Notes under the pieces: model-generated
Told to the model about the DNA's origin: nothing
The model's input: only the letters and a program-made list of their open reading frames with translations
Database searches by the model: none
Source of the DNA: a virus
Lineage: Duplodnaviria > Caudoviricetes
Virus record (IMG/VR): IMGVR_UViG_3300033552_000006
Location: 1-58,643 of that record
Reading direction: 5' to 3' (one strand)
DNA length: 58,643 bases
Shown: positions 4,617-55,179 of the stretch, piece after piece
Position numbering within the stretch: the first letter of the stretch is position 1
Layout: each line of letters starts with the position of its first letter
Translations under genes and position numbers: made by a program

Positions 4617-6138
4617 TCAAACTAAGATTATGGAAGGCATCAACTTACTGGCTGATGCAGTGCAAAGCACATTAGGTCCTTCGGGAAAAACAGTTATTAT
4701 TGCCGAGGAAGGTGACGAACCGTTTGCCACCAAAGATGGGGTAACGGTAGCCAATTGTATGAACAGTCGCGATCCTGTTATAAATGTGGGAATGCAGCTT
4801 ATCAAGAAAGTGGCAAGCAAAATGGATTTTGATTCAGGGGATGGTACCACAACGGTAACGGTATTGTGCCGGGCACTCATAAAACATGGGCTGGAACTTA
4901 AAGCCAAAAAAGGCTTTGACGAACATGCTTTCAAAGAAACTATTTACACTTGTTTGGGCAGAACCATTTATGAATTGAAAAAACATTCAAGAGAAGTTTT
5001 ATTGGCAGATATCGGAAAAGTAGCTCTTACCTCCACCAACAACGACAAGTTCCTTGCCAACTTATTTCAAGAAGCTTTCAATAACTCTGGAACAGAAGGA
5101 TACATCAACATCGTGGAAAGCGTTACCGGTAAAAGCTACGTCGATATCATAAAGGGTTATGTAGTGGAATTGGGGTATATGGAAAGAGCATACGCCAATA
5201 ATCCACTGACAGGTTTCTTTGAAGCACCCAAATGTTCAGTGCTTGTTTATGACAATGAATTCACAAGCAAAAAAGAAATCATGGCGCTGATACGCGTAAA
5301 CAATGGTTATACAAATCCTTTGCCTATATTAATTATTGCAAAAGACTATTCCAAAGAAGTTCAGGGAATTGTAGAGTTTAACAATATGGACCGAACAGGC
5401 AACAAGATATGTCTGATTAAGAACCCGTTGCGTAACGACGAGTACAATACCATGTTGCAAGATATTGCACAATACACAAATGCAGAAGTGGCAAGTTCTT
5501 ATAGCGAGTACGATACGGAACTTGGAATAGCTTATGACTTGGTAGTCAAACAAGGCTATACAGTAATGGGAGAAATTCCAGAAACCGAAAGAAAAGTATT
5601 AGACACTTATCTTTCCTTGTTAGAACAAGCTTCGGAGCAAGAAAAATCAGGACATTATTCAGCCATGATGCTCAAAAGAGTTGCCCGTATGCGCCATGGA
5701 GTAACCACTTTTTACGTTGGTGGTGATTCTGATATTGAACTCAAGGAAAAAAAACACCGAGTAGAGGATGCTTATAAATCCTGTAAGGCAGCATTGAAAG
5801 ACAATGTAATTATGGGCGGTGGGCAAAGCTTGGTTCTGATCACCTTAAATTACAATCCAAAAGAGGAATATGAAATGGCTTTTTATAAAGCTATGTTTGA
5901 ACCTTTCAATATTATTCTAAAAAACTCGCTTCACAAAGACGATGATCGTGTAAATGTTTCCAAGCAAATTAAATGGGGATATGGTTACAATGCCAAGACC
6001 AGGGAATATGAAGACTTGCATGAATCAGGGATTATAGATCCGGTGAGTGTTCAAATCAATGCTCTTACTAATGCAGTAAGTATTGCCCTTACCGTTTTAT
6101 CAACAGAATGTTTAATCGTGGAGACACCAAATCAATAA
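4588..6138 (+). CDS. groEL: phage chaperonin GroEL
   Basis: TLGPSG, TKDGVTVA, GDGTTT, ELKEKKHRVEDA, GIIDP motifs; no GGM tail. Confidence 0.95.
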   Translation: MSKQIYLSDSQTKIMEGINLLADAVQSTLGPSGKTVIIAEEGDEPFATKDGVTVANCMNSRDPVINVGMQLIKKVASKMDFDSGDGTTTVTVLCRALIKHGLELKAKKGFDEHAFKETIYTCLGRTIYELKKHSREVLLADIGKVALTSTNNDKFLANLFQEAFNNSGTEGYINIVESVTGKSYVDIIKGYVVELGYMERAYANNPLTGFFEAPKCSVLVYDNEFTSKKEIMALIRVNNGYTNPLPILIIAKDYSKEVQGIVEFNNMDRTGNKICLIKNPLRNDEYNTMLQDIAQYTNAEVASSYSEYDTELGIAYDLVVKQGYTVMGEIPETERKVLDTYLSLLEQASEQEKSGHYSAMMLKRVARMRHGVTTFYVGGDSDIELKEKKHRVEDAYKSCKAALKDNVIMGGGQSLVLITLNYNPKEEYEMAFYKAMFEPFNIILKNSLHKDDDRVNVSKQIKWGYGYNAKTREYEDLHESGIIDPVSVQINALTNAVSIALTVLSTECLIVETPNQ

Positions 6139-42500: not shown

Positions 42501-45500
42501 TACACTACTTCTATATCTGCTAAAAAAGATTTGGGTAACGCTTCTGTTGTTGGCACTGTTGTCAAAGGTGCTTGGACAGGAACCAAAGGCGCTGTTAAAT
42601 TAGCGGGCAAAGGGTTAAAGTATGCTGCTAAAACAGGTCGTGGAATTGCCAAAGAAGGTGGCGAAATTATAGAAAAAACTCAGGAAGAAATTCAAAATGC
42701 ATTAGACCAAAAAGCTAAAGAGAAAGCCAATACGCAAAACGTCAATCAGGATGCCATGCGTAAGAAAATCATGCATGATGCTTATTACAGTTCCTCTGCC
42801 AGAAACATTGCCAACAATCCTAATGCTGCTGTTTCTAAACAAGAATTAGATGCTTACCTTGATACTAAAATAGCGGCGTTCAAATGGGGGCCAAGAGCCA
42901 TCGAAGAACAGTACACTATCAATAGAATCTTAAAAGCAAAAGGTATTGATGTTAATGTTGTAATTGCCCAAAATCTATTTTCTGCAGTAGGCACCCATGC
43001 AGTAGGTTATGCATTGGCAAGTACTATTTATATTGATGAAAAGGTTTGGAATCAACCAGCTGTATTTATGCATGAAATGTCACATATTCATTACCAACTT
43101 ACTCAAAATACTCCGGCTACAAAAGCAGTAGTAGAATTTGCTAGAAGGGATGCTAAATTGGTGGAAAAAGTAGAACGTTTATATGCTACTAAAGTAATCT
43201 ATGAATCAGAAGGTAAAAAATTTACCCTTGAAACATTCTTAAATGATATTGGCGGACAAGAAGCTTATCAAGACGTAATAGATGAACATGGAATGGAAGC
43301 GTTTTTAGCAGATATTGGTATCACCAAAGCGCCTGATTCAGAACAGTCAGTAATCAATGAGGAATTGTTCACTCATACTCTTGAAGGCCCAATGGCTAAA
43401 AATTTCAACCAAGCCTTAGAACCTATTCGTGAAAGAGGTAGAAAAATAGAATCTAAAAAATGGTGGAGTTGGTTAAAAGGAAACCAAGTTACTTTTGAAC
43501 CATTTGCTTTGGATGTTGCTGAAAAATTAAACAAAGGAGTTGCAATAAACCGTAACGATTTGTTTGAACACGTTATGAGTAAGTTTTCAGAAGAAGTGGC
43601 TAAAAAACCAAAGTCAGCGTTTACTGCTTCCGGGCATGCTTCTATTGTGGACATGCAACAAGCTAATGCTATAGCAAACCATCAAAGAATTACTGCTTCT
43701 AAAATTGAGCAAAGACAATCTTACGATGCCGAAGAAGCTAAGAAAAAAAACAGAGCAACTACCTATGCTAGACTGGCTCAGAAAATCAAAGCGGATATTA
43801 ACATCAGCATGAAAGATATGTCCGAGTTGGAACGTAGAAACGAAACAGAATTCCAATTGGAAGAACTGGAAAACTCTATGTTGGAAGAAGGGGCTTTCGA
43901 TGATTACGAATTAGCCAAGTCTGTTCAGTTTAGGGGAGCAACTAGAATACTGAACAGCTTTACCAAAAGTTTGAATTATGTGAAACGCCAACGTTTTGCA
44001 GCAGCCGATGGTATCGCTTCTGATTTTAATGAAGATGATTTGTTAGATAGAGACGCGTTAATTTCAGAGTTCTATAGTCTTGCCTTTGAACACAAAGGAA
44101 ACACTAATGGATTTATAGATTCTATCGAAACCAGTCAAGTGGAAGAAGTGTATCAGTTCAATCAGTACATGGAGAAAATGCACCCGGGAGAGAAACATAT
44201 GTACTTGAGTTCTATGGCTCACGTAATGGCAAACACTCAAACCATAAGTGCTATCAAAAGTGTAGTTACCGCTGATGGGAAATGGGAAACAGTCAATGCT
44301 CTATCCGAAACAGAAAACCATAAGGTTCAAAACCACATGGCTAAAATGGAACGTGATGAAAATTTACATTACAACCATAAAACGGACGAAAATGCATCGC
44401 TTCCAGTTCAGAATTATCAGTACTTTATTGATGCCTACAATGACATCAAATCAGGTAATCAAAATGATGAAAGCTATTTAGGAATCCTAAGAATGATTGC
44501 TCCAACAGGAACTAAGTTTTCGGCCTTGATCAACAACCAAACTATCAACATGAAAGGGCACAATATCAATGTGAGAGTTCTTATTGATAAAATGGTAAAA
44601 TCCAAAGTGGCCGAAAATGAAAACGGTAAAATTGCAGTGTACAAACTAAAACCGTTCATTGAAGCCATTGTAGACAGTAACCGTAAATTCACTTCGTATT
44701 CTGTAATCCAGAATGCTGAGGGGAACATGGAACCAAGCAAGATTACCAACAATCATTTATTGTCAGAGATTAATGCTATGAATGAGTTTCTTGTCAAAGA
44801 CGCAAAAGGCAATTTCCCGACCTTTAAATCATTTAAGGAAAGATATTCCCATTTGTCTGACGCTTCCAACAGAACGCATGAAAACCCTGTTTTAAGAGGT
44901 ATCTACGATAATGCTAAAAGCAATACTGCTAGACCTTCTTTAACTCAGTATGCTGGACTTACGCACTTGCAGAACGGAGCTAACTCTTTGTATAAAAACT
45001 CAACTGACTTTGCTCAGACTATTGAGGATTTTATGTTGTTCAGCAAATATACTTCTAAGAACTATGTTCAGACTTTGAGTGCTATGGCTGACAGTCCAAG
45101 AAAGTTCATGATGACAGTTGAACGTATCTTGCACAAAGATGCTTTCAACTCTAAAAATGAATTGACTTTAAAAGGAAAACGTTTGCTTGAATCCTCTTGG
45201 AAAATTTATGATAAATCCAATGAAAATCTTTCTGGAAAAAAGAAAGCAATGACTATGCAAACTCAAGGAGAATTCTTTACCAAGTTTGATCAGTCCGTAA
45301 GCAAGGAAATTGCTCGTTGGAATGAGAATGCTAAAGACCTGATAGCTAACAAAACAATTGAGCCTACTTATTTTACTAACGGAAAGCTTAATGCCAACGG
45401 AGAAAATAAGATACGTGAATTTGTATTGAACCAAACCGTTAATGGAATGGCATTGGCTGAAATATTCAATCCGGGTATTCCTTTTAATGATATCGTAAAA

Positions 45501-48500
45501 CGTAACAAAGGAAACAGTTCTCCTGTAATCACTTTCGGAAACAAGAATCTTAAAATGGAAGCTATTCCAATTGACGATACTAAATCTGAACTTGGTTCTA
45601 ACTCTGGTATGTATATGACTCAAGCTATGGCTCAAAAAATAATTGATGCCGGACTTGGAGTCTTTGATTTGAATCATGGATTAAAATTATTGAACTACCA
45701 TGTAGAGAGAGATAATCCAAATTTTAAAGGAGTATCTGCTTACTTCAAAGGGTACACAACTATAATCTCTGAGGAGACTTTAATCACTGAACCTGGACTA
45801 AAAGGTATTTACCAATTACTTACGGAACGTGAAGAAAAGTACAACGGAGAATATTTCGATAAGTATGGAGTTAGTCCTTCTTTAGATATTACCAATGGGG
45901 AAGAAAACTACATCAACTATGCCGTTCCGTATTCTGCCATTAAAAGCGATTTGTTTTCTGCTGAGCAACAACAATCATTATCAGGTATAACTTATGAAGC
46001 ACTCGAAGCCAATTTATCAGACCACCAAAACAGATTGCAAGGAGACAAAGAAACTGTTACTGAATACGATAAAATGCATGCTGCTTTGGATGCTCTTTAT
46101 TATGGCGATAATGGTTTCATGGGCTTATCTACCAATAATTTTGGGCCACAACAAATAATGGATAAACAAACTGAAGAAGCGGTAACGCCTGTTCAGTTTA
46201 TGTCCTCTGTTATTGTAAACGGAATGGTTGGCAACAACTTAGAAATGGGAGAAGAAATTCAAAAGCTTATCCGTACCGATATGAAGAATAACTTGGACGA
46301 GGTTATCTCTGAATTGGGGAACATGGAACCGGCTAAGTACAAGGCTTTCATCTTAAAGAATTTGGATTTGGAGAATATGGACCAAACCCAAAGGCTTATG
46401 ATTGAAGAATCCCTTACTAATCTTAACCATCCGGCTGTATCTGACTTTATAACTAATACATTAGCCAATAGATTAAAACAAGCCGGAAACAAGCTTAAAA
46501 CAAATGGTAGTGTTGCACAACAAAAACCATCATTACATTTTAAATACGGTAGAGGTAAGAACTATTCTATTAATGGAAGAACAGGACTTGCTGGATTTAC
46601 AGACAGACACAATGCCGATGGTAGTGTAGGAACTATGGTTAATGAAATCGTATTGCCTAAGCACATGAAAGATAAAGTTATCTTCAGACAGTACTTGGAC
46701 GAAAACGATCCTCAAGCTATGCGTATCATAAAAGCAAATGCAGACTTAATGGGTAAGTTTACCAAAGCTACTACCGAAAATGATGCTCAAGCTAAATCTG
46801 ATGTAATGAAACAAGTGGCTTTAATGATTGCACGTTCCAGACATGGACAAGCAAGAACAAAGGGTTCTTACGGGCATGATGTAAATGATTATATCGGAGA
46901 GTTTTACGAAGATGGCGTTGCTAAAGGTTGGTTTGTTCGCGGAGAAAGTGTGATGGGTACTCGTATTCCTTCGCATGGACCAGCATCAACAGGAGTCTTT
47001 GAAGCAGTAGATTATTTGGAAGGAGAAGGAAACCAAACTATTGTATCAGAAGAATTTTCAGATATAGCCGGTTCCGATTACGATGGAGATTCCTTGTTTA
47101 TTCAACGCAAAGGAAAAGAGACGCCAAACTTCAACCAAGCTTTGGAAAAAACAGTTGACTTATGGACTTCTCCGGGAATGAAAAACCAAATCAAAGCTAA
47201 GATTGAATTTGAAAAAGAAGTTGAATCAGTTATCGGTGATCAGAAAGTAGAAAAGCAAATGCCTATGTCTCCGGCTTACCACCGAGAAGCGTACAACAAT
47301 ACCATGATTTCTAAAAGAAATATTGGTATCATTTTCAACACCCACCGTATTGCAAATTACTTGGCGGCTTACAATGTAAAATTGAACAGCCCTATTAATA
47401 TCGATGGAACCAGAGTTGATGCTTTTAGCGATAAGGAAGTAGGACAAGAGAGTAGAAACAATCAATCTGCTATGCTTGCCAATATCATTTTGGATAATAC
47501 CAAATGGGGTTTCGCTGATGCTTTGGGATTAAATGACCAAACTATCAACCAGTACTCTTTACTTACTAACATGGGATTCTCTTTAAAGCAAATCAATGGT
47601 ATCATGAACTCAAAAGCGGTTAAGGTTTGGAACAAGCACCAAGCCAATAACCAAAACCCGTTCGCTACCAAAATGAAAAATGCTGATGTAAAGAAAGCCA
47701 TACTAACGGAATTAGGTATAGACGATTCTAAAGTGAAAGCAATCAGTATTAACACTAGTGCCGATAAGATAAATTCTAAAGAGCAAATGAAGCACATTAT
47801 TCAAATGATGGAGACATTGGAAACCATGAACGCTGATATTTTACATATCTCTAAAATTATGGCAGGCCACAAAGGAATTGAAAACGATCCGTTTGTATTG
47901 GAAAAACAATTGTCGGCATTTGATCAAGTAATCAATTCTGATAAAAACAATGCTTTGCTTACGTTCCCTAAAGCGTTCAGAGATAATCCGGACATTAGTG
48001 CTTATCACGATAATGCTTCTCGCATATTGGAGATTATGAAAAAAGCCAATACCATTTACAATAAATCAACTTCTGAGTTGATTGCTGTACTGGACGAGAA
48101 AATAGGTTTTGATAAAAAACTTAGCAAAAGCCAACAGGAACGTGCTTCAGATATCATCAAAAGATTTACTACTTCCAGAATGTTAGGGTTAAACAACCTT
48201 ACTTCTACGGAGAAGCTTAAAGTAAAAAGACAATTGTTTAAAAACATTCAGGCTTATGAAAAAATGTTGCAAGAAACTAAGCTTCCGGGCAACAGAGGAC
48301 TTACGCAATTGGACAAAAGCGTATTGTTCAACAGAGCATTGAATATCAATATCAAACATGCACCTGGACAAAAAAACAAAACTGAAGGAGCTAAAGTTTT
48401 TGACGAAAAAAGCTATGTGTCAGCAAATCCAAGATTCTTTAATGAAAGCATTACAGAAGAAGATAGAATTGCTGTACAACAAGAGTACAAAGCATTGCCT

Positions 48501-51500
48501 CAAAATATCAAAGATGGATTGCTTACTTTGGATTTAATGAAAAATGGATTAACAGGAAAATTATCTTTGTCAAGTATTTTTGATGAAGGTACTAACCATG
48601 ATATTTCTACTTATGCTGCACATGATAGCAAAACCAAGAACAATCCTATAGATAAAAAAGTGATGGATAAATTAGAAAATCTTATTATCTCTAATGAATT
48701 CAAAACTAGCAAAAGCATTCAAGACGTTAGTGGTACTGTATCTTTTAAAGCGGGAGATAACTTAGTCTCTTACATCAGAACCAACAACAAAATTGTATCT
48801 GATGGATTGCAAAGAGGTAATGGAATGATATTCAAAGTAAATGGCAAGCCCTATATCTACGAAGGTATTTCCAAAGAAGAAAAGGACATGATCCGCCAAG
48901 GAAATCGCGATGCTCAAACACAACAACAAGCTTTTACTACTGCTTTGTTCGGTAAAATAAAACCATACAAAGTTTTTGAAGGAGAGGATATCAATCTGGA
49001 AGCTATTTCTATTCCTGATATTGATGGAAGCAGACCCACTTACAAAAGTAAAAAATCAGAGCAGTCCACTAAAGCGGGCCACATGACTGAAGCTACTGTT
49101 AAGTTTGAATCTACTATAAAAAAAAAAGCTAACGTAGGTAACGCTTCACTTATTGATTACCATAACTACAATGACGTTGCTCCCTTAAATCAAAGGGAGT
49201 TTAACGTTGTTATGGAATACGACCAAACCATTGACGACGAGCAAAAAGAATTAGTTTATAAAACCTATCTCGACGAAAAGAAAGAAGCCAATGACTTAAT
49301 GGCTACCCACAATCAAGAAACTTTTTCCAAAATGACTGATGATAATTTGAGCAAAGCCTATAGCAAATTTGCCCAAAAAGATATGTATGCCTATTCTGTT
49401 ATTACTACACCGCTTATCATGGAACTAGCGAGTCGTATGGGCGTGGAGCAAAGTGCCTTAACAGAACAGTTTGAAGATGGCAAGGATATTAGTCTTATGG
49501 ACAGTTGGCTAAACAACAACAACATCTCCTCCAATCATCCCGTTACCCAAAACCTTGTAAAGAAGCTTGGAGAAGAATACAAAAAATTCGTATTGGAAAG
49601 AGGGAAATATATTAAGAGTATCAATACGGCTACCGATGCACTTTACCAAGAGAAATTTGGGCTTAGCAAAAACAAATATGTTCGTATGGGGCAAAGAGTA
49701 GTACAGTCTTTGGTGAACAATAGAATTGAAGTTTATGAGAAGCTATACGGAAATTTGATAGAGAGGGAAGAAATTATTGATGCCAATGGAACCACAAAGA
49801 AAACTTTGAAGTTTAAAAGTGAAGATACTATAAAAGCTTTGCACAAATCAGGTAAAATCAGTCAGGCTGAAATGGACTTTTATACTGTATTTAGAAAAAC
49901 CACTAATCACTTAAAACAATTTGATGGAAACGATAAAACCCGTAAGGATTATATACCACATACTGCTATGGGTAACTTTGAACAGTTCGCCAATAGAGGT
50001 TTGTTAGGATTAATGGTTAATAGCAAGGGAATTGACAGTGTAATTGAGGACGTAAAAGTATATACAGATATTGGTGGCAAAAAAGAATTAATATCGTTTA
50101 GAGACGCCAAAAATCATTACAATGCTTTGGCTTATTCCAAACAACAAACGCCTAAAGATTTATTGAATTTTGAGAAGTTGAAACGTACTGCTAAAAAATT
50201 GCAAAAAACAGGAAAGAACGAAGATGGTTCTCGTTTGATTTATAGCAATATGCAAAATGAGACTTTGCTTGGAATGAGTCCATTGAGTAGGTTTGCAAGT
50301 TCTCGTTCTAATACTGCCGAAATAATGCCCTCAATGGATTTAAATAAAGCATTAGTGGAATACGTCAACGCAAGTATGTTTACTAATGGAAATGAAAGCT
50401 TCAAAGGGTTCAAAGCTATGATGCCAATGATTGATGGAGTGATGGCTTACAATGAAAAAAACGGATACCAAAATGCGTACAAGTATGTAAAAGAAGTGGT
50501 AAAAGAAGGGTTCATTATGAAAAAAGACCAAATCACTTTCAGCAAAAATACTGATGCTGTAATCAATGGCTTGGTTAAAAGCAATACGATGTATGCTTTG
50601 GGATATAAGGGTATGCTTATAGGGAAAGGGATATATGCCATTGGTAACTTAGCCGTTGGTAAGTACATGAACATAAAAAGGGAAGGTGGAAAGTCTTGGG
50701 CTGTTGGAGAGGCTCGCTATTGGGGAGTGGACAAAGGCATCAGCTTAGATACTTTGGATAGACGTAGGAGAGCAAAAAACATACTTTCCAATTTAGGGTA
50801 TATGGAAGCTGACTTCTACGATGATGTAGATATTGAAGCTAAATCAGGTATCGACAATGTATTTACACAAATGGCTTTACTGCCAATGTCGGTGACTGAA
50901 AATTGGATTCAAAAAAGTCATATGCTTGGAATGCTTACCGATGAAGAGTTTGACAAGTTTGATGAAAAAGGACAATACAAAACGGGGGAAACACAAATTC
51001 AAATGGAGCGTGTTCAGAAACTTGAAGAGCGAGTTAAGAACTCACATGGTAAGGGGTTTAGTCCTACAGACCAAAGTAGAATCCATAGGTATGCAGTAGG
51101 TAAAATGTTCATGCAATTTTCAAGACATTTACCTGTACAAATCAGAGAGCGATTTGCTAAAGAGGATATTGATATGAACGGACAAAAATATATCGGTTCA
51201 TTGAGACAAGTGGGTAAAACAGCTGTTGATATCTTCAACAATCGTATGACTCCTGACAAATTTAAAGAGTACTATGCTGACTTGGAACCGCATCAAAAAG
51301 AAGCGTTGCTTGCTGGACTGAGAGGTATGGCACTTATGACTACTCTTGGAATGATAGCGGGCCATTCTACTGATGCAAGTCAAATGACTTCGGGAACTGA
51401 TGCCTCTAGTGTAGCCAGTGGGGTTATGAGTGATGCAAACATTCACTTTGACTTAGACAGGCTTGGACTTAAAACGATACCCCCTTCGGTACGTTCTGCT

Positions 51501-51554
51501 ATGAGTGTGCTAAAAATGATAACACATGGTGGTCAGACTGATGCTGGTAAGTAA
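39516..51554 (+). CDS. virion RNA polymerase polyprotein (zincin domain + two-barrel RNAP)
   Basis: TRIPSHG...AGSDYDGDSL catalytic loop (DYDGD at 47076-47090, aa 2521-2525); HEMSH at 43071-43085 with downstream EELF; 4012 aa. Confidence 0.9.
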   Translation: MGKIFKSNNLDPAGVNIPTAEQNQAEFLDMQSKSQENIDMQTADYLAKEKKKQYGDINAATQDSGMAGMQEEFQGMAGTETAIQNQDQSQLPKAYNMDDIHRNWLGQTGESFMKGLGDTVIGSTGDLLNFATAPLDGFTMLEGNILGNALREYGDEMADEHTTFLKKKLEGQELTWGSLADPDFWSTNVAEMIPMALEFMVTGFGAGAAAKKGAGFFVKSLGTEARLLKAMQTSTDVAEGLAGSGRLVKDIIGTGKGIKDFSLAKYLTRNVDGVLEMSKFSKEFAGAAGAGAANNLLTGAVNGMEAHREMVSQNEQDIAKGIAPRYTEDEMAQVATGTFTRNMLYAPMDMISWGLSYGKAGEKLMAGMSKKMVLKPAEEIAKQTAASFTKSTFPLVKGIMGAAGHGFMEGAEETFQETYEEWARLKSREKHLGEKAPDYWDFYFSKENKNTKVASFAMGALMGGAMNLNFKKAAEEGLNYRDRSEVLRATIDVNDKGGQNAKTYHIRNQMIDLLHDDKVEHFDAFMSSLLAKGTIDEEQLNEYTKEFQEVSVDYNAAANLNVAGKYALAENTIKAKSLSRFIENEKASYAEKQASLKENFDGEENNAVLHQEQLQELADLENTMAEAENPITAEKIKHIKESIAEHKNSPVQAQYAKLESEHNQQVEMLSLNLAMANANRMNLISGKSATPLNIKFWKNSNGVEQVFITEDSKEYYEEGFSYSNENKNDPNLKDKKSMSEGDLQSFQAEGDVLAGLSDKQYEQFVNMSSEEVFESAKRNHENMLKNASKETIKIYDKIMGKGKELVGKVKAKLDANGNPVLDEEGNPVMEPDTAETTPTSTKPINPNISPSGEENAYEKAYQEGGLETAKEAEARKIAEEEAKFKEKQSTEPKTKEQQIEDFFKGMNADEGAQKKMKEYAERLANGESEEKVFEGINLDGAIANGTREYLNIIQDSQIDENLNQKPTYSVVKDKVTGKYSLVDTVTGEPHPNGKTYTTSISAKKDLGNASVVGTVVKGAWTGTKGAVKLAGKGLKYAAKTGRGIAKEGGEIIEKTQEEIQNALDQKAKEKANTQNVNQDAMRKKIMHDAYYSSSARNIANNPNAAVSKQELDAYLDTKIAAFKWGPRAIEEQYTINRILKAKGIDVNVVIAQNLFSAVGTHAVGYALASTIYIDEKVWNQPAVFMHEMSHIHYQLTQNTPATKAVVEFARRDAKLVEKVERLYATKVIYESEGKKFTLETFLNDIGGQEAYQDVIDEHGMEAFLADIGITKAPDSEQSVINEELFTHTLEGPMAKNFNQALEPIRERGRKIESKKWWSWLKGNQVTFEPFALDVAEKLNKGVAINRNDLFEHVMSKFSEEVAKKPKSAFTASGHASIVDMQQANAIANHQRITASKIEQRQSYDAEEAKKKNRATTYARLAQKIKADINISMKDMSELERRNETEFQLEELENSMLEEGAFDDYELAKSVQFRGATRILNSFTKSLNYVKRQRFAAADGIASDFNEDDLLDRDALISEFYSLAFEHKGNTNGFIDSIETSQVEEVYQFNQYMEKMHPGEKHMYLSSMAHVMANTQTISAIKSVVTADGKWETVNALSETENHKVQNHMAKMERDENLHYNHKTDENASLPVQNYQYFIDAYNDIKSGNQNDESYLGILRMIAPTGTKFSALINNQTINMKGHNINVRVLIDKMVKSKVAENENGKIAVYKLKPFIEAIVDSNRKFTSYSVIQNAEGNMEPSKITNNHLLSEINAMNEFLVKDAKGNFPTFKSFKERYSHLSDASNRTHENPVLRGIYDNAKSNTARPSLTQYAGLTHLQNGANSLYKNSTDFAQTIEDFMLFSKYTSKNYVQTLSAMADSPRKFMMTVERILHKDAFNSKNELTLKGKRLLESSWKIYDKSNENLSGKKKAMTMQTQGEFFTKFDQSVSKEIARWNENAKDLIANKTIEPTYFTNGKLNANGENKIREFVLNQTVNGMALAEIFNPGIPFNDIVKRNKGNSSPVITFGNKNLKMEAIPIDDTKSELGSNSGMYMTQAMAQKIIDAGLGVFDLNHGLKLLNYHVERDNPNFKGVSAYFKGYTTIISEETLITEPGLKGIYQLLTEREEKYNGEYFDKYGVSPSLDITNGEENYINYAVPYSAIKSDLFSAEQQQSLSGITYEALEANLSDHQNRLQGDKETVTEYDKMHAALDALYYGDNGFMGLSTNNFGPQQIMDKQTEEAVTPVQFMSSVIVNGMVGNNLEMGEEIQKLIRTDMKNNLDEVISELGNMEPAKYKAFILKNLDLENMDQTQRLMIEESLTNLNHPAVSDFITNTLANRLKQAGNKLKTNGSVAQQKPSLHFKYGRGKNYSINGRTGLAGFTDRHNADGSVGTMVNEIVLPKHMKDKVIFRQYLDENDPQAMRIIKANADLMGKFTKATTENDAQAKSDVMKQVALMIARSRHGQARTKGSYGHDVNDYIGEFYEDGVAKGWFVRGESVMGTRIPSHGPASTGVFEAVDYLEGEGNQTIVSEEFSDIAGSDYDGDSLFIQRKGKETPNFNQALEKTVDLWTSPGMKNQIKAKIEFEKEVESVIGDQKVEKQMPMSPAYHREAYNNTMISKRNIGIIFNTHRIANYLAAYNVKLNSPINIDGTRVDAFSDKEVGQESRNNQSAMLANIILDNTKWGFADALGLNDQTINQYSLLTNMGFSLKQINGIMNSKAVKVWNKHQANNQNPFATKMKNADVKKAILTELGIDDSKVKAISINTSADKINSKEQMKHIIQMMETLETMNADILHISKIMAGHKGIENDPFVLEKQLSAFDQVINSDKNNALLTFPKAFRDNPDISAYHDNASRILEIMKKANTIYNKSTSELIAVLDEKIGFDKKLSKSQQERASDIIKRFTTSRMLGLNNLTSTEKLKVKRQLFKNIQAYEKMLQETKLPGNRGLTQLDKSVLFNRALNINIKHAPGQKNKTEGAKVFDEKSYVSANPRFFNESITEEDRIAVQQEYKALPQNIKDGLLTLDLMKNGLTGKLSLSSIFDEGTNHDISTYAAHDSKTKNNPIDKKVMDKLENLIISNEFKTSKSIQDVSGTVSFKAGDNLVSYIRTNNKIVSDGLQRGNGMIFKVNGKPYIYEGISKEEKDMIRQGNRDAQTQQQAFTTALFGKIKPYKVFEGEDINLEAISIPDIDGSRPTYKSKKSEQSTKAGHMTEATVKFESTIKKKANVGNASLIDYHNYNDVAPLNQREFNVVMEYDQTIDDEQKELVYKTYLDEKKEANDLMATHNQETFSKMTDDNLSKAYSKFAQKDMYAYSVITTPLIMELASRMGVEQSALTEQFEDGKDISLMDSWLNNNNISSNHPVTQNLVKKLGEEYKKFVLERGKYIKSINTATDALYQEKFGLSKNKYVRMGQRVVQSLVNNRIEVYEKLYGNLIEREEIIDANGTTKKTLKFKSEDTIKALHKSGKISQAEMDFYTVFRKTTNHLKQFDGNDKTRKDYIPHTAMGNFEQFANRGLLGLMVNSKGIDSVIEDVKVYTDIGGKKELISFRDAKNHYNALAYSKQQTPKDLLNFEKLKRTAKKLQKTGKNEDGSRLIYSNMQNETLLGMSPLSRFASSRSNTAEIMPSMDLNKALVEYVNASMFTNGNESFKGFKAMMPMIDGVMAYNEKNGYQNAYKYVKEVVKEGFIMKKDQITFSKNTDAVINGLVKSNTMYALGYKGMLIGKGIYAIGNLAVGKYMNIKREGGKSWAVGEARYWGVDKGISLDTLDRRRRAKNILSNLGYMEADFYDDVDIEAKSGIDNVFTQMALLPMSVTENWIQKSHMLGMLTDEEFDKFDEKGQYKTGETQIQMERVQKLEERVKNSHGKGFSPTDQSRIHRYAVGKMFMQFSRHLPVQIRERFAKEDIDMNGQKYIGSLRQVGKTAVDIFNNRMTPDKFKEYYADLEPHQKEALLAGLRGMALMTTLGMIAGHSTDASQMTSGTDASSVASGVMSDANIHFDLDRLGLKTIPPSVRSAMSVLKMITHGGQTDAGK

Positions 51555-51559
51555 AAAAG

Positions 51560-51595
51560 AAAAGGCGAGATTCAGTATATGTTTCTCGCCTTTTT
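51560..51595. terminator. bidirectional intrinsic terminator
   Basis: AAAAGGCGAGA...TCTCGCCTTTTT between convergent genes. Confidence 0.85.
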
Positions 51596-51601
51596 AATTA
51601 T

Positions 51602-51883
51602 TTATATCAATATCACTTCAAATGTGTGAAACACTAAAACTCCTCCTGCCATTTGAAAAGTTCCAATGTGTTTTAATTCTGCATTTTCTATTTCAGGTAT
51701 TGGATTCCCTGTTCCAAATATTTTAAAATGTCTGAATACTTTTTTCGCATTTACATCTACCAAAGCCCAAATACAAGGAACGTATCCTTGCATTTGATTT
51801 GTTAGTATTTCTGCTCCTATTGGCATTTCAATAATGTTGTCGTCCATGTTAGGCATTTGGAATTTCCATATTTGTTTTTTCAT
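51602..51883 (-). CDS. conserved small phage protein
   Basis: IWKF...MP.GAEIL..Q...CIWALVD...GTG...IGT.Q...VFH.FE pattern, widespread in phages. Confidence 0.75.
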   Translation of the reverse strand: MKKQIWKFQMPNMDDNIIEMPIGAEILTNQMQGYVPCIWALVDVNAKKVFRHFKIFGTGNPIPEIENAELKHIGTFQMAGGVLVFHTFEVILI

Positions 51884-51913: not shown

Positions 51914-51967
51914 TTATAACTTGCGCTAGTAGCCATTGAAAAAACGGCGACTAGCTGACAGTTATGC
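51914..51967 (+). other. attC-like site 1 (54 bp)
   Basis: TTATAAC...GCTAGT/ACTAGC stem...GTTATGC. Confidence 0.7.
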
Positions 51968-51972
51968 AACAG

Positions 51973-52356
51973 CTACCGTATATTGCGTATAATTCGATTT
52001 CGTAATTTTCTTTTTTGTGTTGCTTTTAATTGTTTATTATTAAATTGAAATTTTTCTTCTAAATCAAATTTTCCAAAAGAGTATTTTAAACGAAAATAAA
52101 TTTGGTAGATACACTCATTAAAATCATTTTCTTGGTCAAAAGCACCTTTTACCATCACACTTTCCATAAATTCTGATTGCGTTTTTTCTTTAAAACAAAA
52201 ACAACCATCTTTAAAATAAAAATTAAAGTGTTTATAATATTTACCTATTTTATTTCTTAATGCAATTTTAATTTTCGACAACAAAGCCGATTGCATAACA
52301 CTCGTTTGCACGCATTGCGGGTTTTGTGGTTCAATCATATTTTCGTTTCGCATCAT
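51973..52356 (-). CDS. cassette ORF, hypothetical; 5' end lies inside attC-like site 2
   Basis: ORF track; bounded by GTTATGCAA and TTGCATAAC. Confidence 0.65.
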   Translation of the reverse strand: MMRNENMIEPQNPQCVQTSVMQSALLSKIKIALRNKIGKYYKHFNFYFKDGCFCFKEKTQSEFMESVMVKGAFDQENDFNECIYQIYFRLKYSFGKFDLEEKFQFNNKQLKATQKRKLRNRIIRNIR

Positions 52357-52425
52357 ATTTATTTTAAGTTAGAAATTTTATTTTTACGAAGCCCGCAACG
52401 ACAAGCAAGCGAGATAACGTTATCA
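52293..52425 (+). other. attC-like site 2 (133 bp)
   Basis: GCATAAC, CTCGTTTGC/GCAAGCGAG and TTGCGGG/CCCGCAA stems, GTTATCA. Confidence 0.75.
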
Positions 52426-52444
52426 GGAATACTACGTTTCCGTT

Positions 52445-52669
52445 TCATAAGAAACCTATTCCTCTGTTGTAATCGCTAGACATTTCGTTTAAATACTTTT
52501 GTTGTTCATTTTCTATGATGCCTAATTCATAAGCTTCAATTAAAGTTAATTCTCTTTCATAAGTCATTCCTTGAAATTTATATTCTAAACTTATTGATTC
52601 CCCTATTGTAAAAACTTTTGCTTTCACATTAGTTTTTCCGTCAATGTGTTTAATTGTTATTGTTTTCAT
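52445..52669 (-). CDS. cassette ORF, hypothetical
   Basis: ORF track 52445-52756; MKTITIK start at 52669 preferred (A-rich leader). Confidence 0.6.
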   Translation of the reverse strand: MKTITIKHIDGKTNVKAKVFTIGESISLEYKFQGMTYERELTLIEAYELGIIENEQQKYLNEMSSDYNRGIGFL

Positions 52670-52700
52670 AACATATTTAGTTTTAATTAATTCGTACTCC

Positions 52701-52779
52701 TGATAACAAGTGTTTGTAAATACCAGCCGAATTAAGGTTAGTGTGTAGGCTGGCATCTACAAGCACCGATACGTTATCT
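52701..52779 (+). other. attC-like site 3 (79 bp)
   Basis: TGATAAC, GTGTTTGTA/TACAAGCAC and CCAGCC/GGCTGG stems, GTTATCT. Confidence 0.75.
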
Positions 52780-53106
52780 TCAATTGCTACTATTAGGGTA
52801 ATCATTGCTTTTTTTTTCTAGATATTCTTTTTCTTCGTATTTTAAATATACTTTTTTAATTGTTCCGTTTGATTCAAATGTGTTATAAAAAAGCCTTTTA
52901 ATCCGTACCTTATTTATTCCGATACTGTCTTTTTTTTCTTCTTTATTTATCGCAAAACCTTTTTGAACCCATTTACCTGTATAATAATAATTGTATGCGG
53001 TTTCGGTTGTGTCTTTTATTTCCAGAATCAAATTAACATTTTTTGTTTGGCTAAAAATAGCATTTGATAATAATAGTAATATAATTGGCAATTTGATATT
53101 TATCAT
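52780..53106 (-). CDS. cassette ORF, secreted protein with a signal peptide
   Basis: MINIKLPIILLLLSNAIFS|Q. Confidence 0.65.
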   Translation of the reverse strand: MINIKLPIILLLLSNAIFSQTKNVNLILEIKDTTETAYNYYYTGKWVQKGFAINKEEKKDSIGINKVRIKRLFYNTFESNGTIKKVYLKYEEKEYLEKKSNDYPNSSN

Positions 53107-53134
53107 AATTTTTAGTTTAAAACCCGCAAATAGA

Positions 53135-53271
53135 ATATAACAGCACCTATACTCAATTTGTCAATCGGTGATTGTTTGTGAGCAATTAGTGTTACACGGT
53201 TTACACTCTTTTTTGTCCAGTTTTTACCGTGATAAACTGGACAAAATGCGTATAGCAGCGAGACGTTATGT
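53135..53271 (+). other. attC-like site 4 (137 bp)
   Basis: ATATAAC, CTATAC/GTATAG and TTTGTC/GACAAA stems, GTTATGT overlapping the dnaG stop codon. Confidence 0.7.
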
Positions 53272-55179
53272 ATTAAGTTCTTTTTTAATTCTAATCATAA
53301 GGTCAATGTAATGCTTTACATTCTGCTTGTTAGGTTTGTCCTTCTTGCTTTCTTCCTCTATCAGACATTCTATGTAAACTGTCTTATAGAAAAGCAAATT
53401 CTGTCGAATAGCATTTTGAAGTATCAAATGAAGCTCTGGAACTTCTCCCGGCTTTATAATTCCACCTGTCGCAGTCAAAACATTCTTATTACCGTTCAGT
53501 TCTTCATTGCGCATTTCATTTGCTAATAAAAACGTCTCTTCGCTTAAAACGTTACGCAAAGAATTAAAGTCTCTTAAATCAACGGATTTGGCTTTGTCAT
53601 AAATATAAGAAAAGGTAAGATTTAAAAAGTGAATGCCATCGTTCTCCAATTCATAAATGACTTTATCGAGTACTGTTCGCTTGGCATCAAAGTTTACTTC
53701 CTTGTACGTTTGTTGCCCTATCATTCCGGCTTTGTCCAGTAGCACCTCTTTGAAGGTAAGTTCTAAAGAACCATAAGCTAATATGTACTGCAATATCTTG
53801 CGTTCACATTGCTTCTGTATGAAGTTCTTGCTTGAAACAAACTGCCCGTAAAAGCTTTGTGGTGCTGCCACATTAAAGACTACTTGCTCTGCTGTGTATT
53901 TCTTAAGTGTAGTATGTAGCATTTCAATATTTATCTTAGAGATATTGGCACATTGGCTGAGGTATATTTCCCTTTGTATGGCACTTGGCATCTTGGCAAT
54001 ACTGCTTACTACATCTTCAATAGCTTCTCCTCTGAGGGCTATATTATCTGCTGCCATACGAAGCAAGTGCTGAAGCTTAAACAGTACAAAGTCCACTGCA
54101 TTCTCGGAAATATAATTCTCTATCTGCTCTTGAGTCCTTGCTTTGGCAAAATCATCAGGATCCTGTCCATCGGGAAGTATCAAAACTTTTACATTCATTC
54201 CCTCTGGAAGCAATACGTCAATTCCTCGAAGTGCTGCTTTTAGTCCGGGCAAATCGCCATCAAACATTACCACTACATTTTTAGTGAAACGTTTAATCAG
54301 TTTTACCTGTTCAGTAGTCAATGCAGTTCCAGCGGAAGCTACCGTATTTTCTACTCCTTTTTGGTGGAACATAATTACATCAAGATACCCTTCAGTAAGC
54401 AAACATTGGTTCTTTTCGGATATAGATTTCTTGGCTTCGTATATGCCATACAACGCTTCGGACTTGTTGTATATAATACTGTCCGAACTGTTTACGTACT
54501 TCGCCATGTTATCATCCTTCACCATTATCCTACCGCCAAAGCCAATGATGTTTCCCGCTATATTTTTGATAGGAAACATTACCCTGTTTCGGAACTTGTC
54601 GTATAGCTTATTCTTTTCAGGTAAGTAACCCAGTACCGAAGCTTCCACTGCCAATTTCCAATTGAATCCGTTATTGATTAACTGATTGGTTAATCCTGAT
54701 ACGGTTGCTGGTCCAAAGCCTATCTCAAACTTCTGTATGGTTTCTGCGGTAAGTTGCCTTTCTCCATAAACATAGTTCAGCACTTCTTGAAAGTAATTCA
54801 GATTAGCCTTGTAATATTCATTGGCTGTCTTGGTTATTATAAACAAGGACTCTTTGTGTTGAGCTAAAAGCTTTTCTTCGTTAGTACTTTCAGTTTCTAA
54901 AAATTCAATGCTATACAGCTTACACAAATGCCTTATCGCTTCGGGGTAATTCATCATTTCCTTTTCCATGATAAAAGTAGCTATACCACCACCTTTGCTG
55001 GAACTGAAACATTTGAATATCCCTTTAGTTGGCGAAACCATAAAGGAAGGGGAACGCTCGTTGGTAAAAGGGGAGAAGCCTTTGTAATTGCTTCCCGCCC
55101 GTTTTAAGTCCACGTATTTCCCGATTACCTCTACAATGTCCAAAGCGAATACTTTGTCAATCGTTTCTTGTAGTATCAA
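53266..55179 (-). CDS. dnaG: DNA primase, bacterial DnaG type
   Basis: SPF..ERSPSF.V zinc-finger region, FRNRVMFPI, GFGGR, KYVNS, EGYLDV, GTALT, FDGD..G, DPDD. Confidence 0.95.
   Translation of the reverse strand: MILQETIDKVFALDIVEVIGKYVDLKRAGSNYKGFSPFTNERSPSFMVSPTKGIFKCFSSSKGGGIATFIMEKEMMNYPEAIRHLCKLYSIEFLETESTNEEKLLAQHKESLFIITKTANEYYKANLNYFQEVLNYVYGERQLTAETIQKFEIGFGPATVSGLTNQLINNGFNWKLAVEASVLGYLPEKNKLYDKFRNRVMFPIKNIAGNIIGFGGRIMVKDDNMAKYVNSSDSIIYNKSEALYGIYEAKKSISEKNQCLLTEGYLDVIMFHQKGVENTVASAGTALTTEQVKLIKRFTKNVVVMFDGDLPGLKAALRGIDVLLPEGMNVKVLILPDGQDPDDFAKARTQEQIENYISENAVDFVLFKLQHLLRMAADNIALRGEAIEDVVSSIAKMPSAIQREIYLSQCANISKINIEMLHTTLKKYTAEQVVFNVAAPQSFYGQFVSSKNFIQKQCERKILQYILAYGSLELTFKEVLLDKAGMIGQQTYKEVNFDAKRTVLDKVIYELENDGIHFLNLTFSYIYDKAKSVDLRDFNSLRNVLSEETFLLANEMRNEELNGNKNVLTATGGIIKPGEVPELHLILQNAIRQNLLFYKTVYIECLIEEESKKDKPNKQNVKHYIDLMIRIKKELNT

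Follow-up and report, generated by a model that had tools for sequence, protein, structure and literature searches.

A probable three-cassette array of an integron-like system in a Flavobacterium phage

Results

The window, i.e. the whole stretch of 58,643 nucleotides that was analysed (IMG/VR record IMGVR_UViG_3300033552_000006), is from a Flavobacterium phage. We consider it likely that the region 51962–53265 is an array of three mobile cassettes, which would belong to an integron-type recombination system native to Flavobacterium and shared with phages. Four hairpin sites (TAAC...GTTA) lie in one orientation within 51917–53268 (1.35 kb, the span being counted from TAAC to GTTA). A stem-based detector, requiring TAAC/GTTA and a score of at least 8, revealed zero further sites beyond these four on both strands of the window, and 30 shuffles of the window run through the same detector gave a mean of 3.1 matches per two strands, scattered along the full length. 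An energy-only scan for TAAC..GTTA hairpins, which proposed 37 candidates across the window, was unspecific and was superseded by this detector. With the G of the first GTT at 51961 and that of the last at 53265, these two positions are the outer cassette junctions.

Structure of the sites

The left-most site of the array, S1 (51917–51964, + strand, 48 nt, detector score 8.0), is a hairpin situated ahead of the ORF 51602–51883 in the coding direction; its R box is closed in the folds of either strand, and the long-site covariance model R1 did not detect the site. S2 (52296–52422, + strand, 127 nt, 95.3 bits with R1) consists of the R box, an L helix of 9 bp that includes a T.G pair, one more helix, the third, formed by TTGCGGG/CCCGCAA, and a loop rich in A and T which carries ATGATG on the - strand and is 91% identical to intergenic DNA of the phages 2A, FPSV-D15, FPSV-F7, FPSV-D35 and FPSV-D17. 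S3 (52704–52776, + strand, 73 nt, 41.2 bits with R1) belongs to a family whose 22-nt core is exactly repeated in 41 viral contigs and 6 genome contigs, and over 52659–52777, the S3 region, the phages 6H, 23T and 1H show 80.5% identity to the window. S4 (53138–53268, + strand, 131 nt, 40.2 bits with R1) is the first site in the coding direction and its GTTA overlaps the stop codon of dnaG (53266–53268). When measured, the spacer was longer beside GTT in all four sites (4/5 nt in S1, 1/5 in S2, 2/6 in S3 and 5/9 in S4), exactly as a first reading made from the sequence alone (hereafter the sequence-only reading) had stated.

The sites have the hairpin architecture of attC (R box and L box, an unpaired spacer in the centre and a variable terminal structure), and in all four the terminal inverted AAC...GTT pairs as the R box. 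AAC/GTT is the invariant part, the host sites found with the covariance model including CAAC/GTTG. When the window cores, ATAAC/GTTAT, are compared with the attC consensus RYYYAAC/GTTRRRY, the fifth base (GTTAT) is T and not a purine, and the tails are variable. Covariation was analysed in 33 long sites, in the selection of which helix 2 was used and helix 3 was not; 93.4% of the cells were paired as compared to 65.7% in shuffles, with none of 500 shuffles reaching this level, and 168 double-change cells were found vs 42 expected, while helix 3 was 83.9% paired with 7/7 pairs covarying.

No extrahelical bases were found near the L box, the L helix being formed by 10 contiguous pairs without a bulge, and the strand asymmetry consists of about 4 extra bubble bases on the GTT side together with a conserved T.G pair. 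In 147 of 182 sites the more stable fold is that of the - strand (mean -1.63 kcal/mol), which is also richer in G.T pairs (2.45 vs 1.29), and in both respects it resembles the integron bottom strands as described in the available text of Nivina 2016 (PMC5027507). The strand cues thus conflict. An Rfam search at E<=1 gave nothing on the sites, its only three matches being sub-threshold and all located at 51550–51694, a convergent terminator region.

Cassettes and open reading frames

Each cassette runs from TT to G and contains one - strand ORF together with the hairpin upstream of it. The sequence-only reading had placed every ORF between the sites on the - strand, co-oriented with dnaG, and the ORF list agrees. 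Cassette 1 (51962–52419) has its own upstream hairpin S2, with junctions at the G|TT of S1 and S2, and its ORF (51973–52356, - strand) encodes 127 aa from the ATG in the S2 loop (52356) or 107 aa from an ATG that overlaps the R box (52296). The 3' tail of S1, GTTATGCAA (51961–51969), is complementary at 9/9 positions to TTGCATAAC (52291–52299) ahead of S2. Cassette 2 (52420–52773) carries the hairpin S3 and an ORF of 74 aa (52445–52669, - strand, N-terminus MKTITIKH), and its tails GTTATCAGG (52419–52427) and CCTGATAAC (52699–52707) are likewise complementary 9/9. In Logan contigs from the probable source sample the depth over cassette 2 was 79 vs 236 and 170 for the flanks, and other contigs of the sample join the cassette 2 stretch at about 52416. 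Cassette 3 (52774–53265), with the hairpin S4, has tails GTTATCTTC (52773–52781) and GAATATAAC (53133–53141) that are complementary 8/9, and an ORF of 108 aa (52780–53106, - strand) that begins 31 nt after S4, outside the site, with a hydrophobic N-terminus which, judged by eye, resembles a signal peptide.

Searches of all three cassette ORFs against Pfam and PHROG gave no family, tblastn of the ORF 52445–52756 against phage records gave no homologue, and an alignment of the 107-aa cassette-1 ORF, when searched in viral contigs and metagenome contigs, gave no related locus. On the coding side the array begins at the stop codon of a dnaG-type primase gene (53266–55179, - strand), which was named in the sequence-only reading, agrees with that name by eye from its translation and is part of the phage backbone, for which a DnaG search in viral contigs gave no relative; the arrays of Unahavirus likewise come after a gene annotated as toprim-domain. 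Downstream of S1 lies an ORF of the DUF7352 family (51602–51883, - strand; PF24043 at 1.2e-24, phrog_3848). On its left side there was no GTTA junction matching the 5' tail of S1, and the ORF is either phage backbone or an old cassette. In the sequencing data there were also three low-quality skips of 219–236 nt, with short sides of 24–36 letters.

Predicted position of the crossover and orientation of the cassettes

Comparison of related cassettes showed that the predicted crossover lies at G|TT of the + strand and that the hairpin precedes its ORF in the coding direction. When the 6 nt after GTTA were compared with the 6 nt before the next TAAC in 125 non-redundant cassettes from relatives, complementarity was 6/6 in 75 and 5/6 in 26 of them (mean 5.0), while the controls gave means of 2.14 (within-site) and 2.13 ± 0.12 (shuffled partners). 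Junctions are sharp at GTT, both at the Unahavirus breakpoints and at 41 S3-type loci, and one cassette was found in 6 contexts with different left neighbours. In 13 of 23 pairs of homologous cassettes the right hairpin is retained and the left one replaced, in 10 both are retained and in none is the reverse seen, the 13 informative pairs deriving from about 5 cassette families and so not being independent. The sequence-only reading had offered as an alternative a crossover on the ORF side, which would swap N-termini; no pair showed such a swap.

The ORF and its site lie on opposite strands in 92 of 102 phage cassettes (same strand 6, tie 4) whereas among 117 host cassettes 104 have both on the same strand and 13 on opposite strands (Fisher p = 2e-38). 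In the window, 3/3 cassette ORFs are opposite to the site strand. By these strand assignments the inversion of the ORFs is specific to phages. A + top strand with inverted ORFs, as proposed in the sequence-only reading, was supported by the 13:0 ratio among the pairs and by the cassette found in 6 contexts.

The ordinary orientation, in which - is the top strand, a site follows each ORF and the true starts all lie outside the sites, appears highly improbable. Read on the - strand, every ORF is indeed followed by a hairpin, and the stop codon of dnaG lies within ATAAC, integron inverse cores often containing stop codons; the complementarity of the tails is equally compatible with either polarity, and the starts beside S3 and S4 lie outside the sites. 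What argues against it is that in 0 of the 23 pairs the downstream hairpin is kept with the upstream one changed, as compared to 13 of the reverse kind, that the S3-type unit is conserved from GTT across the hairpin and a 33-nt leader to ATG while everything beyond GTT differs, and that in host arrays, under the same site model, the ORFs are on the other strand relative to the site.

Predicted translation starts in and beside the sites

The ORF 51973–52356 begins, as the sequence-only reading had it, at the ATG in the loop of S2 and reads through the core as ...PQCVQTSVMQS..., where V-M is GTTATG. The broader suggestion of that reading, that the recombination site doubles as leader and N-terminus, is supported for site 2, the loop ATG of which is in frame with five ORF bodies, but not for site 3. 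These five bodies are unrelated to one another and continue the frame of the S2-type loop ATG and its leader of 20 residues; in three of them (loci L013, L015 and L016) no ATG occurs from the junction up to the conserved domain, and methyltransferases are among the S2-type cassettes without an ATG of their own. Twelve homologues of the cassette-1 ORF are conserved from (S/A/C)VMQSALL onward, and in 10 of them the open frame extends further upstream and is headed by an ATG, with at least 5 types of extension. Taking all cassettes together, the frame is open back to an ATG inside the site in 35 of 112, with 20 of these lacking an own ATG within 45 nt. From the frames it is suggested that in one cassette, that of S2, the hairpin probably supplies the start codon. 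As a point against the model, the sharing of the S2 leader by five ORF bodies means that a further boundary, placed precisely at GTT, exists towards the ORF; this boundary could come from concerted evolution of the sites, from cassette genesis or from rare exchange on the other side.

A start of the cassette-1 protein at the ATG of GTTATG (52296; 107 aa), with the frame through S2 untranslated and open by chance or by constraint at the DNA level, is the less probable of the two readings but one to be taken seriously. The cassette-1 ORF has an own ATG exactly at the junction, the homologue P0010 is called from MQSALL and P0012 likewise without an extension, the loop frame of a 2A-type variant of the site stops after 26 codons at GTTATGA, and the extension is poorly conserved in sequence among the homologues. 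Against this, 10 of the 12 homologues keep the stop-free upstream ATG in frame across the different extension types, and three sister cassettes with the same S2-type site have no alternative start. Moreover, the junction ATG abuts the stem of the R box while the loop ATG lies in an unpaired A/T-rich stretch, and translation initiation in Bacteroidota favours unpaired A/T-rich stretches.

For cassette 2, the frame 52445–52756 had been noted as open through site 3, and the longest frame does start in the loop of S3, but the extension is probably an artefact of ORF calling. In the S3-type family the ORF begins 32–35 nt after the site, a range that includes the ATG of cassette 2, 34 nt past S3, and in 16 of 18 cassettes with sites of 72–73 nt the frame does not reach back to an in-site ATG. 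The true start of cassette 2 is thus probably that of MKTITIKH (74 aa), as judged from the family, the 103-aa form from 52756 being the mechanical longest frame.

Arrays and recombinase in Flavobacterium

The site family is present in about 45 viral contigs and in Flavobacterium psychrophilum phages, most of the phage loci being predicted viruses of IMG/VR, and the covariance model R1 matches 128 of 151 Flavobacterium genomes. In the chromosomes the sites form arrays of about 30–70 co-oriented sites. A recombinase gene adjoins the array in three of the four chromosomal arrays inspected (G001, G094 and G031, not G152), located 0.8–1.2 kb from the 5' end of the array on the same strand, and in 7 further genomes it is found on the array contig and co-oriented. 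When using a threshold of E<=1e-60 for the recombinase, 81 genomes contained sites and recombinase, 47 sites only, 4 recombinase only and 19 neither (p = 6e-5). The host arrays also show an attI-like junction, ...TATATATTA|GTTATGGGTT, which is matched by AACCCATAAC of the first cassette, and a recombinase beside an attI half-site at the first cassette, the feature of an integron platform, was found only in the three host arrays with an adjoining recombinase. A recombinase search of the 58.6-kb window contig, estimated to be 74% complete, gave 0 matches.

The array-linked recombinase had its best scores with NF040815 (230.8 and 216.4 bits, cut-off 220) and with the solved XerA structures 5hxy and 4a8e. 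With TIGR02249 it reached 210.6 and 202.8 bits, below the cut-off of 265, and matched in two pieces that left model positions 180–238 unmatched, and in an alignment to IntI4 (2a3v) a stretch of 64 residues in the chain is matched by 22 in the recombinase, i.e. it is without the IntI-specific domain. It has an extra N-terminal part of 75 residues, and its C-terminal ...SPFDDL aligns to the end of IntI4. In the available text of PMC9668308 the IntI-specific additional domain around patch III is named as defining for integron integrases. The integrase located beside the array of phage FPSV-F7 was considered as a cassette recombinase and rejected, being of a different type (Arm-DNA-bind_5 and SAM_5 domains).

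It would be possible to explain the hairpins as regulatory intergenic modules, a terminator and leader resembling PeSLs (promoter-early stem-loops; PMC2839356, PMC4122927), with the genes shuffled by homologous recombination and neither a dedicated recombinase nor a circle involved, but this is unlikely. In its favour the hairpin and leader are a conserved module ahead of many different ORFs, the window contig is without a recombinase, and the sites are subject to homologous recombination as well, a deletion in phage 2A having passed through a 15-nt repeat that is present in two loops. However, homologous exchange predicts neither the pairing of the tails nor an attI-like half-site matching the first cassette nor host arrays adjoining a recombinase. 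None of the four sites was terminator-like, with no T-run after the hairpins, and matches to σ70-like promoters, the one type scanned, were not enriched (14 vs 10.5 ± 2.8). Still less probable is that the hairpins are passive repeats, either REP- or MITE-like or terminators, which would mark the ends of genes without taking part in their mobility. Such repeats would agree with the high abundance in the chromosome and the location between genes, but one and the same cassette was found in several arrays with its junctions precisely at GTT, the tails are complementary, and the arrays are strictly co-oriented beside the recombinase.

Discussion

In the integron-type system proposed here, the cassette is a circularisable unit cut at G|TT and composed of TT and a short tail, one - strand ORF and then the hairpin site. 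By comparison, host arrays use the same sites in the canonical order, ORF then site, and phages the order site then ORF. Exchange would be catalysed in trans by an Xer/IntI-like tyrosine recombinase without the IntI-specific domain, presumably acting on the folded single strand as in integrons and encoded by the host at the attI end of its arrays, with a homologue in some phages. The site of a phage cassette would be transcribed as a 5' leader since it lies upstream of the ORF. In the S2-type an unstructured AT-rich loop would then hold the start codon, and the 3' arm, the spacer and the R box would be translated into an N-terminal leader of 20 residues, while in the S3- and S4-types the site would be followed by a leader of 31–35 nt and a separate start codon.

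Integrons are the textbook system of gene capture in bacteria. When compared with the integron features given in the available text of PMC5027507, the present sites share with attC, especially with the homogeneous attC families of Vibrio-type sedentary chromosomal integrons, the imperfect AAC/GTT hairpin, the unpaired bubble, the second helix and the variable loop, but are without the single-base extrahelical bases. Also shared with integrons are the G|TT crossover leading to hybrid sites, the circularisable one-ORF cassettes, the long co-oriented arrays by a tyrosine recombinase and an attI-like half-site, and a more stable 'bottom' strand. The recombinase differs, being without the IntI-specific domain and under the cut-off of TIGR02249, and, unlike in class 1 integrons, its gene points the same way as the cassettes in the Flavobacterium hosts. 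The order of an integron cassette, in which the ORF comes before its attC and is encoded on the top strand, is typical of the host arrays and not of the phage cassettes. With four attC-type sites in 1.35 kb and no integrase on the incomplete window contig, the array has the features of a CALIN, a cluster of two or more attC-type sites over a few kb without an integron integrase. CALINs in phage genomes have been described, with 17 listed and two methyltransferase cassettes in P12002L (Qi et al. 2023, PMC9892861); the available text of that study contains no Flavobacterium, systematic inversion of ORFs, start codon within a site or host platform, and its list of 17 CALINs may include the present phages.

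With the PeSLs, the mobile regulatory cassettes of T4-type phages, the array has in common a module of stem-loop and leader flanking small orphan ORFs in a hypervariable early region. The shuffling of PeSLs is attributed to homologous recombination. Here, in contrast, the position of the junctions at G|TT does not vary, the two tails of a cassette can pair with each other, and there is a host platform linked to a recombinase. Xer-type recombinases (archaeal XerA or the 'integron integrase' family NF040815, XerC/D) give the best score of the array-linked recombinase, which is distinguished from them by its N-terminal extra of 75 residues, its IntI-like C-terminal end and its position beside a cassette array.

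A further and rather doubtful proposal is that Flavobacterium and its phages keep two mirror-image pools of cassettes with one recombination chemistry. The hairpin in phages would then have a dual use, as a recombination site in ssDNA and as a translation initiation region in mRNA, in some families even as the first 20 codons, the recombining strand would be placed on the coding strand, possibly the lagging-strand template, favouring fast turnover during infection, and a cassette would be silent in the array of the other party. Since every S2-type fusion uses GTT as a codon, N-terminal leaders would also be swapped in frame if exchange occurred, rarely, at the end next to the ORF. If this is true, the mostly orphan phage genes and the methyltransferases would be exchangeable among unrelated phages without being expressed in the host.

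In the available text of PMC9024848, integrons of Bacteroidota are described as rare, with earlier only In0 elements and one complete integron in Salinibacter. If the array-linked recombinase is active, the definition of the integron would be too narrow and a large reservoir of cassettes would have been overlooked. Cassettes are shared by unrelated phages, i.e. the window phage, the Unahavirus siphoviruses and dozens of viral contigs, and the inverted phage cassettes offer a concrete route by which genes could pass from phage to phage, a way to test how the orientation of a site is linked to expression and replication, and a natural case of one DNA stretch as both recombination site and coding sequence. 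In fish farming, phages of F. psychrophilum are considered as therapy candidates, and the shuffling of cassettes in their genomes is therefore of practical interest. Among the 107 phage cassette ORFs scanned, 8 are methyltransferases, and in the Polaribacter phage P12002L two sites of the present type are located beside - strand methyltransferase genes.

Layout of the window and its four hairpin sites

The block of plus-strand genes in the window ends at position 51554, and a minus-strand block starts with dnaG (53266–55179) and continues leftward via four small ORFs (the completeness of the record is estimated at 74%). The plus-strand block is closed just before the array by a single ORF of 4012 residues (39516–51554), and the contig as a whole may resemble crAss-like phages in its layout. 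Between the convergent blocks a perfect 11-bp inverted repeat (51560–51594, AAAAGGCGAGA / TCTCGCCTTTT) resembles a two-way terminator, and searches of the region against Rfam gave weak matches alone, all at this repeat.

Four sites on the plus strand, S1 (51917–51964), S2 (52296–52422), S3 (52704–52776) and S4 (53138–53268), form TAAC...GTTA hairpins, each with a predicted fold of a terminal R box, an asymmetric unpaired bubble, a second helix and a loop. The longer side of the bubble is next to GTTA at all four (4/5, 1/5, 2/6 and 5/9, respectively), as the sequence-only reading had noted. A detector demanding TAAC, GTTA and a 9-position helix with a score of at least 8, with TAAC/GTTA fixed and the strand called from the longer spacer, was run on both strands and returned S1–S4 alone, the mean being 3.1 hits in 30 shuffles of the window; folds and detector together confirm that the sites are present as first described. 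A σ70-like match (TTGTCG, 18 nt, TAAAAT; 9/12) is situated inside S2, on the minus strand at 52375–52404, with the loop ATG 19 nt downstream of it; the region shows no enrichment of matches of this type, and promoters of Bacteroidota depart from this consensus.

Both in the window phage (53266–55179) and in unrelated Unahavirus phages (L003–L009) the cassette array follows a primase/toprim gene of the same strand, directly in the window and after a few site-less ORFs in phage 6H. In FPSV-F7 (L010) a lysogeny-type integrase is found in place of this gene.

Cassettes as exchangeable units

Comparison of the window sites showed that the bases following GTTA are complementary not to bases of their own site but to those preceding the next TAAC: GTTATGCAA with TTGCATAAC, GTTATCAGG with CCTGATAAC and GTTATCTTC with GAATATAAC (the last at 8 of 9 positions). 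Such pairing across the cassette is the expected signature of a unit with one fixed cut point that would be able to close on itself.

In blastn searches, siphoviruses of Flavobacterium psychrophilum (genus Unahavirus) matched the S2 loop at 91% and S3 at 80.5% identity, and exact matches to a 22-mer of S3 were found in 41 viral contigs (4–143 kb) and six genome contigs, five of them titled Flavobacterium, and to a 27-mer of the S2 loop in six viral contigs. Within the related loci, where the phage loci are mostly predicted viral contigs, the detector found 201 sites in co-oriented arrays of up to 18 per locus. Comparing the 6 nt after GTTA with the 6 nt before the next TAAC in 125 non-redundant cassettes, we found complete complementarity in 75 and a score of 5/6 in another 26 (mean 5.0); the corresponding mean was 2.14 when both tails came from one site and 2.13 ± 0.12 when the partners were shuffled. 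When eight Unahavirus arrays were compared all-against-all by blastn the homology breakpoints fell at ...CGTTA|, and one conserved left end (…ATCTATAC|GTTA) leads into four different cassettes, depending on the phage. These comparisons show the cassettes as units cut at G|TT that recur from array to array and between unrelated phages.

In contigs of the probable source sample (runs X1 and X2; window 52373–52774) the depth of cassette 2, the unit between S2 and S3, is 79 versus 236 and 170 in its flanks, about one third to one half. Other contigs join at ~52416 and ~52771, just before GTTA, with ends inside S2 and at G|TT of S3. This gives weak support, weak because contigs break at repeats, for a cassette content that varies in the source sample.

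Phage 6H has one cassette twice, and one copy of its hairpin (L003 1887–2424) is truncated after ...TATACTAGC; the DNA beyond the truncation is annotated, on the other strand, as a fragment of cytochrome c oxidase subunit I. The DNA that separates two sites in 6H (L003 ~4260–5500) is missing from phage 2A (L009 ~4775–4795), where the join passes through a 15-nt repeat (CCAGCCGAAATTATA) common to both loops, a short-homology deletion and not a GTT cut.

Cut side and gene orientation

Since tail pairing is blind to polarity, the same cassette was compared in different places. An ORF of 75 codons, found in at least six loci, always has the same S3-type hairpin to its right, and its left neighbours are of six kinds; the left junction is GTTATAAGAA in every case and pairs with TTCTTATAAC in front of the cassette's own hairpin. 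In 23 pairs of cassettes from different loci with homologous interiors the right hairpin was kept and the left changed in 13, both were kept in 10 and the reverse was found in none, where the 13 informative pairs represent about five cassette families and the counts include related cassettes. This polarity (13 versus 0) places the cut at G|TT of the plus strand, with the hairpin 5' of its ORF in the coding direction.

The longest open frame was opposite to the site strand in 100 of 112 cassettes found by the detector, and with R1, a covariance model trained on 33 long sites, 92 of 102 phage cassettes were opposite, six the same and four tied. The proposal, made from spacer length, that the window ORFs are inverted relative to their sites was thus right, and the comparative evidence gives it better grounds.

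Arrays and recombinase in Flavobacterium

R1 gave matches (E ≤ 0.001, the E-values being approximate) in 128 of 151 sampled Flavobacterium genomes, many with at least 22 candidates scored, the numbers per genome being lower bounds. The arrays of four genomes, the chromosomal arrays that were read, have ~30–70 co-oriented sites spaced 0.5–0.9 kb apart and span 20–55 kb; the one in G152 (contig C1, ~2,290,200–2,344,600, L083–L085) holds ~70 over at least 55 kb. In 117 cassettes of these arrays the ORF was on the site strand in 104 and opposite in 13, which differs from the phage counts with p = 2e-38. The comparisons show, as read from sequence, the site upstream of the ORF in phage cassettes and downstream in host cassettes.

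In G001, G094 and G031 the top match of the genome to the integron-integrase model is found 0.8–1.2 kb beyond the 5' end of the array on the same strand; in G152, the fourth genome, the recombinase homologue is 465 kb away. The same co-orientation was found in seven more genomes, on contigs listing both features. Sites and recombinase occur together in 81 of the 151 genomes, sites only in 47, recombinase only in four and neither in 19 (p = 6e-5). The interval that separates the recombinase from the first cassette holds an inverted repeat followed by ...TATATATTA|GTTATGGGTT, and the site belonging to that cassette starts with AACCCATAAC; the same junction in a second genome reads ...ATATACAA|GTTGGCGGA with TCCGCCAAC. 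The host layout is that of an integron platform with canonical cassettes.

The recombinase linked to the host arrays has 346–347 residues with Pfam PF13495 and PF00589. Its best model is NF040815, "site-specific tyrosine recombinase/integron integrase" (230.8 and 216.4 bits, cut-off 220), followed by TIGR02249 (210.6 and 202.8 bits, cut-off 265), which matched in two pieces with model positions 180–238 skipped. Aligned to the solved structure of IntI4 (2a3v), its C-terminal end reaches the end of IntI4 and 22 residues stand opposite 64, so that the additional domain defining IntI is absent. This domain is treated as the defining one in the available part of PMC9668308.

No match to the recombinase was found on the window contig (58,643 bases, 74% complete). 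A homologue of 267–287 residues, with 38–40% identity to the recombinase of the host arrays, is encoded in two viral loci, L040 (6426–7229, minus strand) and L053 (9491–10354, plus strand); in both it is situated at the array's attI-side end and points in the direction of the cassette ORFs. We infer that the phage sites are recombined by a host or a phage enzyme. In L040 a second, phage-type integrase is located beside the homologue.

The G001 array holds one S3-type site with leader and two opposite-strand ORFs on its flanks, which indicates that phage-type cassettes do enter host arrays. At this place (L080 7703–8834, G001:C20) the S3-type site and phage-style leader are followed by an opposite-strand ORF of 85 codons, beside the second opposite-strand ORF, and the cassettes look like phage-type ones captured by the host. 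A search of 190 kb of chromosomal array sequence gave no copy of the S2 loop.

Possible translation starts inside the sites

It had been suggested that ORFs start inside sites 2 and 3. For site 3 this was not borne out: the conserved S3-type unit consists of GTT, hairpin, a 33-nt leader and then ATG, and in 16 of 18 cassettes with 72–73-nt sites the frame does not run back to the in-site ATG. The window ORF of cassette 2 most likely starts at 52669 and encodes 74 aa.

For site 2 the suggestion probably holds. The S2-type loop contains ATGATG after an A/T-rich stretch, and the frame MMRNENMIEPQNPQCVQTSV, after crossing the third helix, the L arm, the spacer and the R box, opens into five different ORF bodies: that of the window ORF, DNA methyltransferases of the N6/N4 (two) and C5 (one) types and a protein with an N-terminal DFDGT motif (HAD-like by eye; no Pfam family at E ≤ 0.001). 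P0015, from a large protein database, is a sixth body. Three of these ORFs lack an ATG of their own; in the interval from the junction to the start of conservation in the N-terminal region, L015 and L016 have no in-frame ATG, GTG or TTG, and L013 has as sole candidate start a TTG inside the first motif. S2-type ORFs thus probably start in the site loop. The window cassette-1 ORF has its own ATG within GTTATG, and among its homologues the extension is open and ATG-headed in 10 of 12, representing at least five sequence types. In the 2A-type site variant the loop frame ends after 26 codons. Over all families the frame is open to an in-site ATG in 35 of 112 cassettes, 20 of which have no own ATG within 45 nt.

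Comparison with integron attC sites

Three helices covary in 33 sites, 93.4% of cells being paired versus 65.7% in shuffles and 34–40% with slid partners; helix 2 was used in site selection and helix 3, which showed both-sided changes at 7/7 pairs, was not. Extrahelical bases, proposed earlier for assigning the recombining strand, failed to appear as single-base bulges, and the asymmetry consists instead of the bubble and a T.G pair. The bubble is 1/5 in 105 of 192 unique sites, with a conserved A after TAAC and AAAC before GTTA, and the T.G pair occupies one position in 24 of 33 sites. In integrons the bulged bases of attC are held by the additional domain of IntI, and their absence here fits the absence of that domain.

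The minus strand, coding in the phages, has the more stable fold in 147 of 182 sites and more G.T pairs, a likeness to integron bottom strands, for which both are reported in the available part of PMC5027507. Compared with a textbook integron, extrahelical bases and the IntI domain are missing, and in the phages the ORF-then-site order is missing too, and because of this the system is placed as one of integron kind but outside the IntI/attC family in the strict sense.

A Xer/IntI-like recombinase would act on the folded single strand, serving the phage arrays in trans during infection; the site would be transcribed as a leader, and in S2-type sites translation would start in the loop. Either of two ideas would fit the use of the mirror form by phages: with it the coding strand may become the recombining one, and so perhaps the template of lagging-strand synthesis, or cassettes may be silenced in the other party's array. 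Cassette units, the inversion between host and phage and the in-site starts all rest on comparison of sequences.

Clusters of attC in phages, including Polaribacter phage P12002L, have already been published, and Qi et al. reported attC sites of P12002L and tested them with IntI1 (PMC9892861, available part, whose main text does not mention Flavobacterium). P12002L (L067) has two short plus-strand sites of the same build as those of the window, 30008–30056 (spacers 1/4) and 38879–38936 (spacers 3/6), beside minus-strand DNA methyltransferase genes. For Bacteroidetes the IntegronFinder 2.0 paper (PMC9024848), in its available part, lists In0 elements only and one complete integron, in Salinibacter. 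A search of full-text literature found nothing on Flavobacterium cassette arrays, inverted phage cassettes or start codons inside attC; the nearest phage analogue in the available text is the PeSLs of T4-type phages.

When 107 phage cassette ORFs were scanned, 92 had no Pfam family at E ≤ 1e-5 and eight were N6/N4 DNA methyltransferases, which points to anti-restriction and other accessory roles. A serine recombinase (Resolvase N-terminal domain, 6.5e-31) is encoded by one phage cassette ORF (L039 4303–4950, plus strand), and others are RNA ligase (two cassettes), DUF3307 (two), a VRR-NUC nuclease and DUF1281_C.
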